From positions 31,280 to 95,279 of IMG/VR virus record IMGVR_UViG_2974515140_000001: 64,000 nucleotides of DNA; one strand, 5' to 3'. Shown here piece after piece: positions 17,448 to 58,201 of the stretch. Positions within the stretch are counted from its first letter, which is position 1, and the number at the start of each line of letters is the position of its first letter. The position numbers and the translations under genes were made by a program. The notes beneath the pieces are model-generated. The model was not told where the DNA came from and searched no databases. It was given only the letters and a program-made list of their open reading frames with translations. Source of the DNA: a virus (lineage: Duplodnaviria > Heunggongvirae > Uroviricota > Caudoviricetes > Ackermannviridae).

Positions 17448-18653
17448 ATGAAAGATAAACCACATGACATCCCATATTGCGGTGTCCGTGAAACCAAAAT
17501 CAAATCAGCCCATCCTATGTTAAGTTCATTCCACCGCCAGCTGGCATATGAATGGATGAGGGATCGTTATGCGATACATGTCAAGAAGGACGTGCAATGC
17601 CTTCCAGCGCCATGGACGGATAATCCGGTATTACGCCAAGTCAAGTTTTGTAACGTGCGGAGAGAGCACGATAGGCAGTCTCGAAATTTGATCAATAATA
17701 TCATCCTCGATCAGGATCTCACGCTATCTGACAAAATGTTCAACTGTGTATTGTTCCGCATGTACAACATGTGGGAACCTATACAGGCTTTGGGTGGTCC
17801 ATGGACGATCGAAGAATTCGGAAACATAAATCTTGAATGGTGTCGAGATGTTCTTCAGGAATTCGAATCTAAAGGTGGCAAAGTTTTCACCAATGCGTTT
17901 AATACAGGCGGTCTGAAACAATGCCTGGCTTTCCCTGAACTAGTTGTCAACCACAAGGAGCAACGCTTTGGCGGCATGAAGGTAAAAGTCCATCGGGTTG
18001 GCGGTGTTATAGATGAAATGGATTACAAGGTTGCCAAGAAGCTGGCCGAAGATAATCCTGGTGAATACAAAATAGAAGGCTGGGAACCATACATGCCGAT
18101 GCGAGTCATCCGCTCTTTGAAGGCATTCGTCAACAAACACCCTCATTACTTTGATCGCCTCAGGGAATTTAGCCGTCCCGACTCTGTTTACCAGGCGATG
18201 TATGACGACATTGAGGGGCTTGGACCATTCTTGGCATACCAGATTTGGGTTGATTTTACATACATCGATGAATATCCATTCAGTGAAAACCACTTCACTA
18301 TCGCTGGTCCAGGTTGCCGTGCTGGTATCGATCTGTTATTTTTGGACAAGGACGGCATGACGCATGAAGAATGCATATTCTGGGTTCGTGATCATCAAGA
18401 TCAATTGTTCGCTCAGTACGGGTATAAACGTAATGAATTTTGGTCGGCAGAAGAACCGGAAGACCGTTGCATGAATGTTATGCAGTTGGAGAACATGTTC
18501 TGTGAACTTCAGAAATATACCCGCTGCGTTGAGGCGGTGATGCGCGGGGAGAAACCTCGAGGAAAGGTGGGGTATAATGGTGGTGAAGTTAATCAGCCAT
18601 TACAGAAGACTCCCGTTCGTTCTATTAATCTGTTAGAGAAGATGAAAAAATGA
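17448..18653 (+). CDS. hypothetical 401-aa protein
   Basis: RBS gagagga. No recognisable catalytic motif. Confidence 0.45.
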   Translation: MKDKPHDIPYCGVRETKIKSAHPMLSSFHRQLAYEWMRDRYAIHVKKDVQCLPAPWTDNPVLRQVKFCNVRREHDRQSRNLINNIILDQDLTLSDKMFNCVLFRMYNMWEPIQALGGPWTIEEFGNINLEWCRDVLQEFESKGGKVFTNAFNTGGLKQCLAFPELVVNHKEQRFGGMKVKVHRVGGVIDEMDYKVAKKLAEDNPGEYKIEGWEPYMPMRVIRSLKAFVNKHPHYFDRLREFSRPDSVYQAMYDDIEGLGPFLAYQIWVDFTYIDEYPFSENHFTIAGPGCRAGIDLLFLDKDGMTHEECIFWVRDHQDQLFAQYGYKRNEFWSAEEPEDRCMNVMQLENMFCELQKYTRCVEAVMRGEKPRGKVGYNGGEVNQPLQKTPVRSINLLEKMKK

Positions 18654-22894: not shown

Positions 22895-22928
22895 GCTCTG
22901 AATAATATTTCAACCTGTCAATAATATA

Positions 22929-22960
22929 ATGCCCGGTTATATTCAATCGGGCATTTTTAT
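22929..22960 (+). terminator. rho-independent terminator
   Basis: tgcccggttatattcaatcgggca followed by ttttt. Confidence 0.55.
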
Positions 22961-23044
22961 TATATTAATTGGCATCAATACCGCCTGTCGTAATATAATA
23001 GTCCCATGTTGAAATAGTTGGGAAATATAACTCACGAGAGCCTG

Positions 23045-23221
23045 ATGACCGACAACAAATTAAAACGCGCCGGACTTGATTGTCTTGACAATTCATTCCG
23101 TCCCAGTGATGTTCTGGTCGCCCAAATGGAAAACAACCGGGATTTCATTGAAACTATGCTGGAGAACGCCGACGCGAACTCCAAACACTCCAAAGCCCAA
23201 AAAGGTCAAAACGATGATTGA
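23045..23221 (+). CDS. small hypothetical protein
   Basis: 59 aa. Its stop overlaps the start of the vWA gene. Confidence 0.3.
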   Translation: MTDNKLKRAGLDCLDNSFRPSDVLVAQMENNRDFIETMLENADANSKHSKAQKGQNDD

Positions 23222-25430
23222 ATCATTAACATTTAAGAATGCGGTTGCGACCGTCGCGCCGTCTAACCATGTAATCGTTGTAGATATCTCCGGTTCCATG
23301 TATCGTTCACTTCCAGAAGTCCGTAAGCATCTGAAGGAGAACCTGCCTTCCCTGGTGAAACCGGAAGATACTGTGAGCATCCTTTACTTTTCATCTCGCG
23401 GTGATTTCGGAACGGTATTTGCCGGACGTCAGATTAACAGTGCAACCGACCTCAGTGAGATCAATAATCTAATTGACCGTTTCCTGAAGCCTTCTGGTTG
23501 TACTGGTTTTGTTGAGCCGCTGAAACTGGCTGCGGAAACTGCCATTAGCCTGAATAAACCTGGTTATGTTAACAACCTGGCATTCATGACCGACGGATAT
23601 GACAACTGCTGGCGTTCTAATGAAATCCTGGATGCCGCTGAAGTACTGCCCAAAGCGTTTGATAACATTACCTTCATCGAATACGGTTGGTATTGTAATC
23701 GCGAACTGCTGGCGCTAATGGCAGAACGTTCTGGTGCGACCCACGTATTCGCCGAAGGCCAGAATGAATATCAGACCGAATTGGAAAACGTGCTGAAAAC
23801 TTCTTCACCGAAAGTTGTAGTCGATGTTCCTCTGGTTTATACCCATGCCATTTATGTTGAAAATGGCGTGGCGACTGTTTTAGCTGTGCATCCTGATGAA
23901 GAGCACCCTATTGGCCACGTCAGCATCCCTGAAAGCGTTTCTCAGCTGTGGGTTGTAAACCCCAACATGATCGACCAGCTGGACAATCTGGCCGACATCC
24001 AGGCGGCATACGTGCTGGCATTTTATGGCGTGTATACCATGGATGCCGATCTGGTTTGGGCTGCACTGAAGAAGACAGGAGACGTCCGCTTCATCAAACA
24101 GTACAGCAACTGTTTCACCAAGCAGGACTATTCCAACATCAAAGTTGACCTGACCCAGGCTATCGTGGATGAAACTTTGCGCGGCGTAGATGGTATCGAT
24201 TACAACATGGTTCCAGCTGAAGATGCGACGACCATTGTTGATGTCTTGACCTATCTGGCCGAAGCCGACGTCTCTGTTGTCACTAAGCATCCGTTGTTCT
24301 CTTACAACAGCATCGGTCGCGGAACTGTGCAGAAAGTTGATGACACAGAAGACAAGCTGGCTGAACAAATCGCCGAAGCCAAAACCAAAGCAGAGCGTAA
24401 AGCGCTGGCTCTTAAACTGGCCGAGCACGAAGATTGGACGCCGGAATTTACTCCGGTTGACGACAAAGGGATTGTCCCAATTAGCAATCTGGTCTACAAT
24501 TCAGAGCGCCCTAACATCAGCATTCAGACCGTTCAGCACGGGACGGTTGTTGTGCCGGAGTTCGTACAGAAGAAATATGAACTCCCTGAAGAACTGGGAA
24601 CCTGGCGTTATCGTAATTACACCATCGTCAAAGATGGCATCATCAACCTGAAGACGATGCCGATTACTGCTGAATCTCCGATTGTCCGAGCTAAGGTTGT
24701 CCAAGATTTGACTGCCATGGGCGTTAATGTATTTGGTGGTCCGGAAATCTTCATCGTTAATTTAGAAAGCGTTCCAATGGTCAACCGCGCCATGACCAAG
24801 AACATCAGTGCTGCCGAATTCTTCGCTGACAACGTTCGTCGCGAAGCGCTGAAGGCAAAACAGAAAGTTCTGAAATTCTATCGTGATGAACTGGTTGGCA
24901 AAGGTAATGCAACAGGCCTGGCGTCTAAATATGGTAAAGACGCCGCCGATTTCTTGTCAGCAAATGGTATTCGAGACTACGGGTTCTCGCCGAAAACTAC
25001 TTCTGTGGAATCAACCGACGTCTACATGAGTCGTGAACTGAACGTGAAAATCAAAGGTGCTTCGTCGCTGCCGAGTATTGCGTCTGTTGTTAAAAAGCAA
25101 GCAGACGGTAAAAAACTGAATGTCGCTGATCAGTTGATTGCTAATGCTCTGGCCGAATACAACGCTTTTGTTAAATCTCCAATGATCACCAGCGTACCTG
25201 AAGAGACTCAGAAAAAGCTGATTGAAAGTTGGATTGGCGACGCAGCAAAAGCAGCCATCAACGAAGTCCGCGCCCTGAACAAAACGCTGTCTAAAGTAGT
25301 TTACGGCATCGTCGCTGGTCATGGTTGGTTCACTGATTTGGATCTGGAAGAGTCTACGATGGATGTAGAAGTTGATGGGGTGAAATACACCGTCACTGCC
25401 GAACTGGCCGAAAAAGAAATCAAGATCTAA
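23214..25430 (+). CDS. von Willebrand factor A domain protein (739 aa)
   Basis: MIDAS residues VVDISGSM, then T, then MTDGYDN at the N-terminus, followed by about 500 aa of unknown extension. Confidence 0.65.
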   Translation: MIESLTFKNAVATVAPSNHVIVVDISGSMYRSLPEVRKHLKENLPSLVKPEDTVSILYFSSRGDFGTVFAGRQINSATDLSEINNLIDRFLKPSGCTGFVEPLKLAAETAISLNKPGYVNNLAFMTDGYDNCWRSNEILDAAEVLPKAFDNITFIEYGWYCNRELLALMAERSGATHVFAEGQNEYQTELENVLKTSSPKVVVDVPLVYTHAIYVENGVATVLAVHPDEEHPIGHVSIPESVSQLWVVNPNMIDQLDNLADIQAAYVLAFYGVYTMDADLVWAALKKTGDVRFIKQYSNCFTKQDYSNIKVDLTQAIVDETLRGVDGIDYNMVPAEDATTIVDVLTYLAEADVSVVTKHPLFSYNSIGRGTVQKVDDTEDKLAEQIAEAKTKAERKALALKLAEHEDWTPEFTPVDDKGIVPISNLVYNSERPNISIQTVQHGTVVVPEFVQKKYELPEELGTWRYRNYTIVKDGIINLKTMPITAESPIVRAKVVQDLTAMGVNVFGGPEIFIVNLESVPMVNRAMTKNISAAEFFADNVRREALKAKQKVLKFYRDELVGKGNATGLASKYGKDAADFLSANGIRDYGFSPKTTSVESTDVYMSRELNVKIKGASSLPSIASVVKKQADGKKLNVADQLIANALAEYNAFVKSPMITSVPEETQKKLIESWIGDAAKAAINEVRALNKTLSKVVYGIVAGHGWFTDLDLEESTMDVEVDGVKYTVTAELAEKEIKI

Positions 25431-25468
25431 ATCTAATTGGCGGGGCCAACCCGCCTTACTTTCAGGAA

Positions 25469-25786
25469 ATGAATATGAGCAACAAACCGACTTATGTTGA
25501 TGTAATGCGCGTTTTGGCCCAATACGCGTGTGACAATCTAAACATGGAAACTTGGCGCAACGGCGACCATAAAGAAAAGTTCGATAATATCGACGACAAC
25601 ATTGATGCGTTGGCTCCTCTTCGGGCCAAGAGCGATCTTGGTGGTGATGATCTTGACATGATTGAACTCATCATGGAAGTTGAAGAACAATATGATGTTG
25701 AAATCAGCGATGAATGGGTAGGTAAACATGGTGATGACCCCACGCTCGGCGCATTGGCTGAATTGGTAGTTGCCCTCAGTAAGTAA
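25469..25786 (+). CDS. acyl-carrier-protein-like acidic protein lacking the phosphopantetheine Ser
   Basis: DLGGDDLDMIELIMEVEEQYDVEI parallels the ACP [20 protein letters not shown] helix II, but Asp replaces the Ser. Confidence 0.4.
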   Translation: MNMSNKPTYVDVMRVLAQYACDNLNMETWRNGDHKEKFDNIDDNIDALAPLRAKSDLGGDDLDMIELIMEVEEQYDVEISDEWVGKHGDDPTLGALAELVVALSK

Positions 25787-25794
25787 CCAAAAGA

Positions 25795-25821
25795 ATCCCC
25801 AATAAAATATTGGGGATTTTT
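25795..25821 (+). terminator. rho-independent terminator
   Basis: atccccaataaaatattggggat followed by ttttt. Confidence 0.6.
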
Positions 25822-25832
25822 ACTTTTAGGGG

Positions 25833-25861
25833 TTTACTTCCTCTAAAGAATGTCCTATTAT
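25833..25861 (+). promoter_or_regulatory. T4-type early promoter (TTTACT-17-TATTAT)
   Basis: GGTTTACTTCC then 17 nt then TATTAT. A second TTTACT lies 14 nt upstream. Confidence 0.5.
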
Positions 25862-26448: not shown

Positions 26449-26955
26449 ATGACCGACCAACAAATTCAAAATTTATTTTATCTTGTCCATGATAAGTCCC
26501 ACGTCATGCGTCCTGGCACCGTTTCCCCCACTATCCGTGATCTGGTAAAAGATTTACGTGTACCCCAGACCACCTCACTTTATCGAGGGTTGCCCAGGGA
26601 GGACGTTGCGCGCTTGGAATCTATGCTCGAGCGGGGTGATATGTTTCAAACATGGGATTCATGCCTGAGTTTCAGTGAGTTCAAACATGTCGCGAAAAAA
26701 TTTGCTAGAGCGTATGGGACAAACGCTGTTCTCCGCGTTTGTTTCAATCACAGGAAGCAACTTCCGGAGGGGCTTAATGTCTTTGGTTCTTTAGATAAAT
26801 TCGTAAATAAACAAGACGAATCAGAAATGGATATGTTGGTCTTAGCATCTATAGAAAAAGAATGGATATTTTGCCAACCTCGTGTAATGCCTGTTTCAAG
26901 AAAAATCCAGGTAGACGGGACAACCGTTTTTACTGTGTCGCTCGTTACTCTATAA
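26449..26955 (+). CDS. hypothetical protein
   Basis: 168 aa, starts MTDQ. Preceded by a duplicated about 40-nt leader. Confidence 0.5.
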   Translation: MTDQQIQNLFYLVHDKSHVMRPGTVSPTIRDLVKDLRVPQTTSLYRGLPREDVARLESMLERGDMFQTWDSCLSFSEFKHVAKKFARAYGTNAVLRVCFNHRKQLPEGLNVFGSLDKFVNKQDESEMDMLVLASIEKEWIFCQPRVMPVSRKIQVDGTTVFTVSLVTL

Positions 26956-31052: not shown

Positions 31053-31357
31053 TTTCAAAATATATTGTAAAGCCTGGGGATACCCTGTCCAGCATCGCTC
31101 TAAAATTATATGGTGATGCCCAACAGTATATCAAATTATCCAGATTCAACAATATCCAAAACCCAGACCATATCACGGTTGGTCAGGTTATTTGTTTACC
31201 CACACCTGTTGAAGACAAAGAACACATTATGATTCCGGTTCAACCGACTCAGAAGTGTTTGGATGCGATAGCTGGTTTATTTCGACCAGGTTTTTGTGAC
31301 GGAACCATTGAACGTCACATTTATCAAGCGATTGTGGAAAACGCAGGTGTAAAATGA
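31049..31357 (+). CDS. LysM domain protein
   Basis: YIVKPGDTLSSIALKLYGDAQQYIKLSRFNNIQNPDHITVGQVICLP is a canonical LysM. Confidence 0.7.
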   Translation: MISKYIVKPGDTLSSIALKLYGDAQQYIKLSRFNNIQNPDHITVGQVICLPTPVEDKEHIMIPVQPTQKCLDAIAGLFRPGFCDGTIERHIYQAIVENAGVK

Positions 31358-56575: not shown

Positions 56576-58201
56576 TCATGCGCCTTTACCACCAAAATTG
56601 CCACCGTTATCCTCTAACTCCGGTTTTATATCAATTGGACCTGGGCCTGTAGTTGTTACAGGAGTTGCCCCCGCACGTGAGGCGGCGCGACCAGCGCCTT
56701 CAGCATATTTGATGTTGCCTTCAATAGTCTGCGCCACCGACAACTTATCACAAACTATTTCACTAGCCAGTATTTTAGGCACTTTCAAAGTATTGGAAAC
56801 TTCCAACATTTCACAGATGAGACGCAACACGTTCTGTGCCTGTATCTCTGCCAATTGGGAAAATTTCATCAACGCCGTGCCAGCGACCACATTGGAGTAG
56901 TTAGAAGAGTGCAAGTGGTAAACTTCTCCTGTCTTACGCTGTACTTCAGTCCCGCCGATAGTCAGGTTATGATCGCGCCCCACATAATAACGTTTGTCAA
57001 ACATCGTCAGATCATAATGATCTTTGACTGATTTATTGACCACGTCCCCGTCAGGAAGCATCTGCTTATAAGACCCCGAGGAGTGCATCCAATGGAGACG
57101 TTCCCCGCCTGGAGTGTCATCAACCTCCATAATATGCCCCGACCGAGATGCCATGACATTGTTGTAAGGATAACGAGACCCGCCAGCAGAAGGAACCGAC
57201 ACCTCTCCTGTGTTATCAATATCTTGAACACGCCCAGAAGGAGGCGGAGTTTCCTGAACTTTTGGTGTACGATCAGGGATTGGCTCAGACCATTTACCAT
57301 TTTGTTGCGCAGGAGCCGCCGATGCTGTCGTAGCAGGACCAGGCCAACGATAACCCAACACAGATGAGCGGCTGAAGCGACTCACCTTCACAGAATCGGA
57401 TTGGTTTCCCCCGATACACCAAACGTAGTTGGCGTCAAATTTCTGAACGAATGCAACGTGACCGAATGTCGGGTTGTTCCCGCGCCGGAACACTACAACA
57501 GCGCCGTAACGTGGTTCTGACAGAGGAGATCCCCATTGTAGATATGAACGAGCCAAAGCAGAACGCGTTGATGTATATCCGGCCTGTATCAGAACCCATC
57601 CGACAAACGACGCACACCAACTAACTTCATCTTCTGAAGCCCCCAGGGAAGTTGTCTTATGATATTCCAATATCCTTGGGTTGTTATTGAATTTGCCAGA
57701 ATATTCTTTGACACCTAATTCACCACGAGCCACTGTCATCCATTTCTCAGGATCATAACCGTCCACAGGCGGTTGAGGTTCTGGTTGTGGGTCGTCTTCA
57801 ATCTTAACAGGAACATTCTCGACGGCATTATACTTCTGCCTTTCTATAGATTGAACGACCTGACCCAGCGCCAATGGGTTTGTATCTGACCCATCTGTTG
57901 GTGTTGCTGCTGGCCATACCCATGCAATACGGATGTTCTGATATGCTTCATCCAAAGCAAACCCCATAACGTCAGAGCCGACAGTGATACCCGTCGGAGA
58001 CCAGCCTAAACCTGCCGAGGAGGCGTTAGATGCTGGCATAAGCATTTTACCCCAAGGCAATAATTCTGTAGGCAGGAGAGTGGTATCCTCCGTGTGTACC
58101 CCATAGATGCGTACTGCGACGCGCCCGTTTTGATCGGGATCATTCACGTCTTCAACGCGCCCGTAAAACCAACGCAAGTTGTCTAACATATTGAAACCCA
58201 T
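56576..58201 (-). CDS. gp5-like baseplate hub / cell-puncturing protein with CHAP peptidase domain
   Basis: N-terminal gp5 OB-fold (GRVEDVNDPDQNGRVAVRIYGVH). A central CHAP domain (SWCASFVGWVL...GHVAFV) replaces the T4 lysozyme domain. Confidence 0.5.
   Translation of the reverse strand: MGFNMLDNLRWFYGRVEDVNDPDQNGRVAVRIYGVHTEDTTLLPTELLPWGKMLMPASNASSAGLGWSPTGITVGSDVMGFALDEAYQNIRIAWVWPAATPTDGSDTNPLALGQVVQSIERQKYNAVENVPVKIEDDPQPEPQPPVDGYDPEKWMTVARGELGVKEYSGKFNNNPRILEYHKTTSLGASEDEVSWCASFVGWVLIQAGYTSTRSALARSYLQWGSPLSEPRYGAVVVFRRGNNPTFGHVAFVQKFDANYVWCIGGNQSDSVKVSRFSRSSVLGYRWPGPATTASAAPAQQNGKWSEPIPDRTPKVQETPPPSGRVQDIDNTGEVSVPSAGGSRYPYNNVMASRSGHIMEVDDTPGGERLHWMHSSGSYKQMLPDGDVVNKSVKDHYDLTMFDKRYYVGRDHNLTIGGTEVQRKTGEVYHLHSSNYSNVVAGTALMKFSQLAEIQAQNVLRLICEMLEVSNTLKVPKILASEIVCDKLSVAQTIEGNIKYAEGAGRAASRAGATPVTTTGPGPIDIKPELEDNGGNFGGKGA

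Follow-up and report, generated by a model that had tools for sequence, protein, structure and literature searches.

The ACP-like gene gp059

We here report the analysis of a small gene in a window of 64,000 nucleotides (the whole stretch of DNA under study), which covers positions 31,280 to 95,279 of the IMG/VR virus record IMGVR_UViG_2974515140_000001. Salmonella phage bering (NC_049502.1; Kuttervirus, Ackermannviridae) matches this region with 100% identity, and a window position equals the NC_049502.1 position minus 31279. On the plus strand, at 25469-25786, lies an open reading frame (ORF) that the original prediction described as an acidic protein of 105 amino acids, similar to acyl carrier proteins (ACPs) and having aspartate at the site where ACPs carry 4'-phosphopantetheine on a serine. 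The ORF list and the translation agree with this description, and the protein is indeed acidic, with an isoelectric point (pI) of 4.14 and a net charge of -15. The gene corresponds to bering gp059, whose product name in GenBank is 'acyl carrier protein'. Its true start is probably the second ATG at 25475 (MSNK..., 103 amino acids), two codons after 25469, because it is supported by the spacing of the ribosome-binding site (RBS), by the annotation in GenBank and by the alignment of the family: an AGGAA box is located 7-8 nucleotides ahead of this ATG, and all homologues in the family alignment begin with MS.KP.Y. Homologues are present in more than 270 phage records, many of which are labelled 'acyl carrier protein' as well, and their family phrog_4154 is placed in the category of host takeover and auxiliary metabolism.

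On the whole, the searches place gp059 in the ACP superfamily. With a hidden Markov model (HMM) search, the PP-binding profile PF00550 is matched with 29.2 bits (gathering cutoff 20.8, E=1.1e-6), while PF14573 scores 24.8 in the Pfam scan, under its cutoff of 32. The Pfam coverage is limited to residues 55-100, which comprise the helix II 'recognition helix', helices III and IV and a W..GDDPT insertion, because the N-terminal helix and the long loop are family-specific. The match to phrog_4154, named 'acyl carrier protein' by annotation rather than by tested function, is full-length (E=8.7e-55, residues 3-105 on profile positions 1-108). In a sequence search of the PDB, 115 ACP chains are hit at E<10, and the best of them (3.4e-7) is the Bacillus subtilis ACP (2x2b/1hy8). 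The NCBIfam equivalog cutoffs for AcpP (set TIGR00517 / NF002148-51) are missed by a wide range, with 34.1 versus 70.45 bits for TIGR00517 and 34.0 versus 71 for NF002148; gp059 is therefore a superfamily member, but not an AcpP equivalog.

The predicted structure is consistent with these results. An AlphaFold2 model was built from the family alignment, with a predicted local distance difference test (pLDDT) score of 76.8, and its top 15 PDB neighbours are all ACPs. The Foldseek comparison with the PDB ACPs gives template-modelling (TM) scores of 0.65-0.73 (target-normalised) and probabilities of 0.95-0.99, with weak E-values of about 0.1, which in our view reflect how small the domain is. As modelled, gp059 is a four-helix protein of the ACP fold. 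Two outcomes that would have spoken against the original prediction, the lack of any PP-binding hit and a fold unlike the ACP bundle, were both examined, and neither was found.

Loss of the attachment serine

The helix II signature of ACPs is located at 25634-25657 and reads DLGGDDLD. In the HMMER and MAFFT alignments with B. subtilis ACP and E. coli AcpP, D-L-G-G-D60-D61-L-D of gp059 corresponds to D-L-G-A-D35-S36-L-D, so that the first aspartate, D60, aligns with D35 and Asp61 with Ser36, just as the Ser-to-Asp exchange had been proposed. The attachment serine of a functional ACP is thus missing in gp059, and D or E takes its place in each of the 25 distinct genes of the family, a set drawn from all the lineages sampled, with identities down to about 32%. 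Among these genes, the codon at this site is GAA in 12, GAT in eight, GAG in three and GAC in two, and no other codon occurs. The same column is D or E in 18 of 18 close homologues. In an exhaustive profile search of 1.84 billion representatives, we detected only about 10 full-length clusters, all of them with D or E (GDELD, CDELD, GDDLD, CDDLD and ADELD), and the scan of metagenomes for divergent members returned one full-length relative only, which is an Ackermannviridae contig. The exchange extends to further members, including the Serratia phages phiMAM1 and 3M, which have a shorter version of 90 amino acids with the motif DLWFDELD, the lineage L117 with ELDGDDLD, and Erwinia phage vB_EamM-Bue1 (MG973030.1), in which an ACP-like ORF with HFAMDELD (L109 12316-12612) lies directly 3' of a gene for a vWA-domain protein. 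This ORF of Bue1 is missing from the recorded gene calls.

The residues around the lost serine are strongly conserved. In the 25 distinct genes, D(-1), L(+1), D(+2), I(+4) and E(+5) relative to the serine-equivalent site are invariant, and the median pairwise ratio of nonsynonymous to synonymous substitution rates (dN/dS) is 0.17. The equivalents of AcpP D35, L37, D38, E41, M44, E47 and D56, which we take to be partner-docking residues on the face of helices II and III, remain invariant down to about 32% identity, and so do the family-specific K4 and Y7 of the N-terminal helix (K..Y) and the W..GDDP(T/S) loop. These invariant residues, together with the D/E column and the dN/dS of 0.17, show that the gene is not decaying. 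As judged from the comparison of the genes, the serine was lost in an ancestor and this state has been maintained, and the acidic residue is kept by selection. The view that gp059 is a decaying, functionless remnant of a former phage ACP, to which the absence of the catalytic serine and of annotated partner enzymes in the bering genome might point, is accordingly rejected as extremely improbable; besides the low dN/dS and the roughly 12 residues that are invariant, the ACP-like gene is intact throughout the phage records mentioned above, its RBS and terminator are conserved, and one peptide of the ACP-like protein was detected in the Sajous1 proteome (PMC10892097).

The claim that the protein cannot be acylated is sound for the canonical site. 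It is strengthened because all relatives have D or E, because the gp059 motif contains no other Ser or Thr, and because the annotation of the 156-kb bering genome, on which this statement depends, lists neither a phosphopantetheinyl transferase (PPTase) nor any enzyme of Fab, Lpx or other acyl-ACP type. The rest of the protein is presumably unmodified, too. We therefore consider it very probable that gp059 is a non-acylated ACP fold that works by binding proteins.

We then present an overall view of the serine column in ACP domains. Among 180 profile-aligned domains taken from the representative hits, the column has S in 116, E in 29, D in 20, T in five, G in two, A, P, F and W in one each, and a gap in four; that is to say, the serine-less domains have E or D (29 and 20) versus 11 for all other residues together, in a census biased by the query profile, which has D/E at this very column. 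Even with this slight bias, acidic replacement is the dominant outcome in the collected sequences where ACP-like proteins lose their serine. Most other phage ACPs, including ORF97 of ICP1, retain the serine, while further ACP-like proteins with Ser-to-Asp/Glu exchange exist in unrelated contigs without a vWA gene. The recurrence of D/E suggests a general solution for making an 'ACP mimic', and the rationale suggested for the acidic residue is that its carboxylate mimics the charge of the holo-ACP phosphodiester, or stabilises the N-terminus of helix II, or both.

Transcription unit and neighbouring genes

The features at the locus are listed in Table 1. The unit runs in the order of terminator, promoter, gp057, the vWA gene gp058, hairpin, ACP-like gene and terminator, with the ACP-like gene in the last place. 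An ORF of 55-70 amino acids is found at the position of gp057 also in divergent lineages.

Table 1. Features of the gp059 locus, with positions in the window.
Feature	Positions	Strand	Basis or remark
5-hydroxymethyldeoxyuridine (5-hmdU) DNA kinase gp051, eight genes upstream of gp059	17448..18653	+	PF18723, 1.6e-83
Upstream terminator (22928-22955) and sigma-70-like promoter TTGGCA-16-TAATAT (22969-22996)	22928..22996	+	Consensus scan, sequence
58-aa ORF gp057, first gene of the unit, overlapping the vWA start	23045..23221	+	Annotation; phrog_11447
vWA-domain protein gp058, 738 aa	23214..25430	+	Immediately 5' of the ACP-like gene
GC-rich hairpin GGCGGG-GCCAA-CCCGCC and T-rich tail, in the 44-nt spacer between vWA and ACP-like genes	25439..25455	+	Terminator scan
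ACP-like gene, bering gp059	25475..25786	+	GenBank CDS 56754-57065 of NC_049502.1; 103 aa
PP-binding profile region, residues 55-100	25631..25768	+	Pfam coordinates
Asp61 codon GAT (numbered from 25469), equivalent of the phosphopantetheinylated Ser	25649..25651	+	B. subtilis and E. coli ACP alignments
Strong intrinsic terminator (AATCCCCAATA...TATTGGGGATTTTT) closing the unit	25794..25818	+	Sequence; conserved in most lineages; the scan reported the stem on the minus strand

The hairpin between the two genes is conserved in about 20 distinct spacers of 38-44 nucleotides (equivalents in L002-L075), always with a GC stem of 6-8 base pairs and a T-rich tail. The stem occurs as GGCGGG/CCCGCC, GCCGGG/CCCGGC, GGGGGCG/CGCCCCC and GGGGGC/GCCCCC, i.e. 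with compensatory changes. It is probably a leaky terminator or attenuator, or else an element of RNA stability, which would set the ratio of vWA to ACP-like expression. The spacer has no room for a promoter, and therefore the ACP-like gene should be read through from the vWA transcript. The expression of the unit is presumably early; the timing is judged from the consensus promoter, because a literature search for Kuttervirus transcriptomes yielded nothing specific.

Some further features are seen downstream. The gene gp062 (26449-26955, 168 amino acids), three genes downstream of gp059, is annotated as 'RNA polymerase ADP-ribosylase'; it has no local Pfam match and a weak match to phrog_832, and its homologue in L071 carries a precomputed assignment to PF26816 (Mod_ADP_RT). 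This gene supports the view of an early host-takeover neighbourhood. At about 25820-25861, after the closing terminator, a box ACTTTTAGGGGTTTACTTC is found in nearly all lineages before a TATTAT element resembling a -10 box, and it may be a phage-specific promoter motif, perhaps of middle type, for the next gene.

The vWA gene deserves attention as the constant neighbour of gp059. In 28 loci, among them those of Bue1, L117 and five divergent lineages from metagenomes, 37-52 nucleotides separate the vWA gene from the ACP-like gene that follows it. gp058 has an N-terminal vWA domain and a beta-sandwich, followed by a C-terminal half of unknown fold, whose approximately 350 residues match no solved structure. 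Its metal-ion-dependent adhesion site (MIDAS) has the motif D24-x-S26-x-S28 (23283-23297) plus T97 and D127, all of which are invariant in 43 homologues. The family, phrog_2426, has 240 hits at E<1e-10 and is conserved over its full length and uncharacterised; it is common to Ackermannviridae, RB43/KP15-type T4-like phages and jumbo phages. A DUF8224 protein is a frequent companion of the vWA protein (bering gp053, L109, L110, L112 and L117), and the literature search on the vWA protein yielded nothing specific.

This neighbourhood raises another explanation, namely that gp059 specifically serves gp058 as an accessory or ligand, whose Asp/Glu completes the metal coordination of the MIDAS in the manner of an integrin ligand, and which thereby regulates or adapts a phage scaffold. 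The close adjacency holds even where the ACP-like proteins are only 32-45% identical, the spacer with its covarying hairpin leaves no space for a separate promoter, the MIDAS site is invariant, and the gp058 model resembles scaffolds of protein interaction such as ArnB, ITIH and TFIIH p44. In known MIDAS ligands, D and E are freely interchangeable. Against this, the vWA gene is found without an ACP-like gene in its flanks in T4-like phages (L092-L099, L103), Aeromonas-type phages (L104, L110), a jumbo phage (L106) and other phages (L111-L113), while some 20 further ACP-like genes with D/E for the serine, on viral and metagenomic contigs, have no neighbour of the vWA family. The two genes are separated by three small ones in phiMAM1 and 3M, and within one collinear virus family the adjacency is perhaps just inherited.

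The two genes also diverge independently of each other, with a recombination boundary between them. In L016/L080 (IMGVR_UViG_2974516482_000001), the vWA protein is 96.5% identical to that of bering and the ACP-like protein 61%; the nucleotide identity falls at the boundary of the two genes and is back to about 95% some 400 nucleotides further downstream, which indicates that, within Kuttervirus, one allele of the ACP-like cassette has been replaced by another. In other lineages, the vWA and ACP-like identities to bering are 82/44, 79/37 and 72/36. By these comparisons, the ACP-like gene resembles a cassette placed behind a core gene, evolving fast and open to exchange. Overall, such indirect tests count against an obligate partnership of gp058 and gp059, and the idea of a MIDAS plug is downgraded because vWA genes are widespread without the ACP-like gene, D/E ACP-like genes exist without vWA, and the divergence is decoupled. 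We regard it as unlikely, though it comes second among the explanations considered.

Another neighbour is the 5-hmdU DNA kinase gp051, which provides the context for a possible explanation by DNA hypermodification. In this case gp059 would be an accessory of thymidine (5-hmdU) hypermodification, for example a scaffold or regulator of kinase or transferase enzymes, and indeed it lies about 7 kb downstream of gp051 on the same strand. A second co-occurrence is found on an unrelated viral contig of 35 kb, L043/L118 (IMGVR_UViG_3300032105_000035), where an independently serine-less ACP-like gene (DLGADDLD) is part of a cluster at L043 4081-8261. There it is flanked by the genes of an FkbM methyltransferase and of a radical SAM/SPASM enzyme, beside a 5-hmdU DNA kinase and a glycosyltransferase 61. 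This is unlikely to be chance because the kinase is rare, and the cluster is possibly a new pathway of thymidine hypermodification with a role for the pseudo-ACP. Yet among 41 kinase loci an ACP-like gene is present only in Ackermannviridae and L043, with none within 10 kb in about 30 other diverse kinase loci, and the remaining serine-less ACP-like loci have no kinase within about 6 kb. Moreover, the pathway of phage Vi01 to 5-(2-aminoethoxy)methyldeoxyuridine (5-NeOmdU) has been reconstituted in vitro with the kinase, gp247, gp226 and free serine, with no carrier (PMC8989533). For these reasons, the link is mostly rejected; a direct chemical role of gp059 in the hypermodification of Ackermannviridae is unlikely, and even an accessory role has a low probability.

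Comparison with known ACPs

The closest known system is the ACP of bacterial type II fatty-acid synthesis (FAS II), AcpP or AcpA. It shares with gp059 the four-helix fold, the acidity (pI of about 4.1), the helix II signature DLGxD-x-LD..E(L/I)(V/I)M..EE and the DxEI motif of helix III, and the B. subtilis ACP is about 45-50% identical over 43 aligned residues. Unlike the FAS II ACPs, the phage family has Asp/Glu for the serine and no cognate synthase or acyl-transfer enzymes annotated, and gp059 has about 25 additional amino acids of N-terminal sequence and loop as well as the W..GDDPT insertion before helix IV.

An ACP fold that has likewise lost the attachment of phosphopantetheine is the mitochondrial ACP (mACP) of Plasmodium falciparum, which is retained for protein binding independent of fatty-acid synthesis, to Isd11-Nfs1 (PMC8547962). 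It differs from gp059 in being eukaryotic and organellar, and its partner is known, namely the LYR protein Isd11; for the phage, no protein of LYR type was identified. The gp059 substitution is acidic. In the Plasmodium protein, the substitution is hydrophobic. The apo form of E. coli AcpP gives a further precedent for an unmodified ACP fold that binds partners with strong physiological effects (PMC3896788, PMC8602292). While apo-AcpP is transient and converted to the holo form by AcpS, gp059 is locked in a non-modifiable form with a carboxylate at the attachment site. Finally, there are serine-containing phage ACPs (ORF97 of Vibrio phage ICP1, Brevundimonas phage Bajun and many viral contigs; phrog_5934), small acidic homologues from large lytic phages, whose annotation as genes of host takeover or auxiliary function is like that of gp059. 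In contrast to gp059, they keep DSLD, may be genuine carriers, and show no linkage to vWA.

A possible host-directed function

Taken together, these results let us propose, tentatively, that gp059 acts as a decoy for the host clients of AcpP, which seems the most likely single role. The protein would be produced when transcription of the vWA gene reads through into gp059, starting apparently at a sigma-70-like promoter of host type. It would retain the four-helix ACP fold and the acidic docking face of helix II without the serine for 4'-phosphopantetheine, and the Asp/Glu carboxylate at the N-terminus of helix II would be placed approximately at the position of the holo-ACP phosphodiester. Its action would be purely by protein-protein binding through the helix II face, where it would occupy the ACP site of one or more AcpP-docking host enzymes as a dead-end competitor; we infer both this binding and the identity of the partner. 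The prime candidate would be PlsB, the glycerol-3-phosphate acyltransferase. It is favoured because unmodified ACP is known to inhibit PlsB and stop growth: apo-ACP inhibits the acyltransferase more strongly than holo-ACP does and arrests growth (PMC3896788). As an outcome, the membrane-lipid metabolism of the host would be diverted or shut down during infection. SpoT, which had been named as a possible target, is a poor candidate, as a review reports that it does not bind apo-ACP (PMC3896788), while MukB is activated equally by apo-AcpP and holo-AcpP (PMC8602292). The fast, independent exchange of gp059 beside a slow vWA gene is in our reading typical of host-interaction genes, and this modular evolution together with the host-type promoter fits a host-directed factor.

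Several points weigh against the decoy. The helix II residues are needed for the ACP fold too, and their conservation is thus no proof of docking. Helix N-termini intrinsically favour acidic residues, so that D/E at this site could be explained by stability alone, and the census of D/E carries the query bias described above. Besides, gp059 is no closer to the enterobacterial AcpP than to other ACPs, its best PDB match being from B. subtilis; the conserved N-terminal helix K..Y and the W..GDDPT loop imply an interface that is absent from AcpP; and the strict linkage and co-transcription with the vWA gene could mean that the partner is encoded by the phage. The sigma-70-like promoter is a consensus match, and the searched literature holds no binding or phenotype data on gp059.

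The acidity of gp059 leads to still another explanation, a DNA mimic or an anti-restriction or anti-defence protein, whose acidic surface would block a DNA-binding defence protein or chromosome-organising protein of the host, including the AcpP-dependent MukBEF. The protein is small and very acidic, its gene is fast-evolving and exchangeable, and it belongs to an early-type neighbourhood near the predicted RNA polymerase ADP-ribosylase; an acidic mimic of phage origin is described as targeting MukBEF (PMC7617805), and apo-AcpP is able to bind MukB (PMC8602292). However, the acidity is no greater than that of an ordinary AcpP, since the pI of E. coli AcpP (4.05) is essentially equal, and the fold is that of an ACP, the only hit to Ocr being at rank 43 with a TM score of 0.21. 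In PHROG and Pfam, gp059 matches ACP families only, and it has no match in the PADLOC library, which is weak evidence because this library contains defence rather than anti-defence proteins. The alternative of a DNA mimic, suggested by the original prediction, thus finds no specific support, and we set it aside, without fold or family support, as improbable.

Novelty and implications

The gene and its label 'acyl carrier protein' are already known, whereas the lost serine and the family-wide acidic lock are apparently new: our literature search on phage ACPs without serine yielded nothing specific, and no report was found that notes the loss or proposes a function. The annotation should also be corrected, as it names a function that the gp059 family almost certainly cannot perform. 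ACP is among the most abundant proteins of E. coli, with 0.25% of the soluble protein (PMC3896788), and docks to many enzymes as well as to MukB and SpoT. A non-modifiable viral ACP that an entire phage family has kept would be a natural probe of these interactions, and a new route of host takeover if the proposal is true. The results also offer a testable rule, by which an ACP fold that loses its serine takes overwhelmingly Asp or Glu where it is still needed for binding partners without the prosthetic group. In a broader and rather doubtful form, the 'locked' ACP mimics with Ser-to-Asp/Glu exchange would be recurrent, independently evolved effectors of phages and mobile elements, which imitate the charge of holo-ACP, though lacking its arm, and jam or hijack the ACP machinery of the host (lipid, lipid A, MukBEF); Ackermannviridae would then provide the first large conserved family, maybe delivered or regulated through the vWA MIDAS.

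The phage family includes candidates for therapy and biocontrol against Salmonella, E. coli O157, Klebsiella and Dickeya. In addition, a record named 'Enterococcus phage Efm 3-10' (OR844942.1, 111 kb) encodes an ACP-like protein with 100% identity to that of bering; a Kuttervirus gene under the label of a Gram-positive phage suggests that this entry is mislabelled or contaminated.

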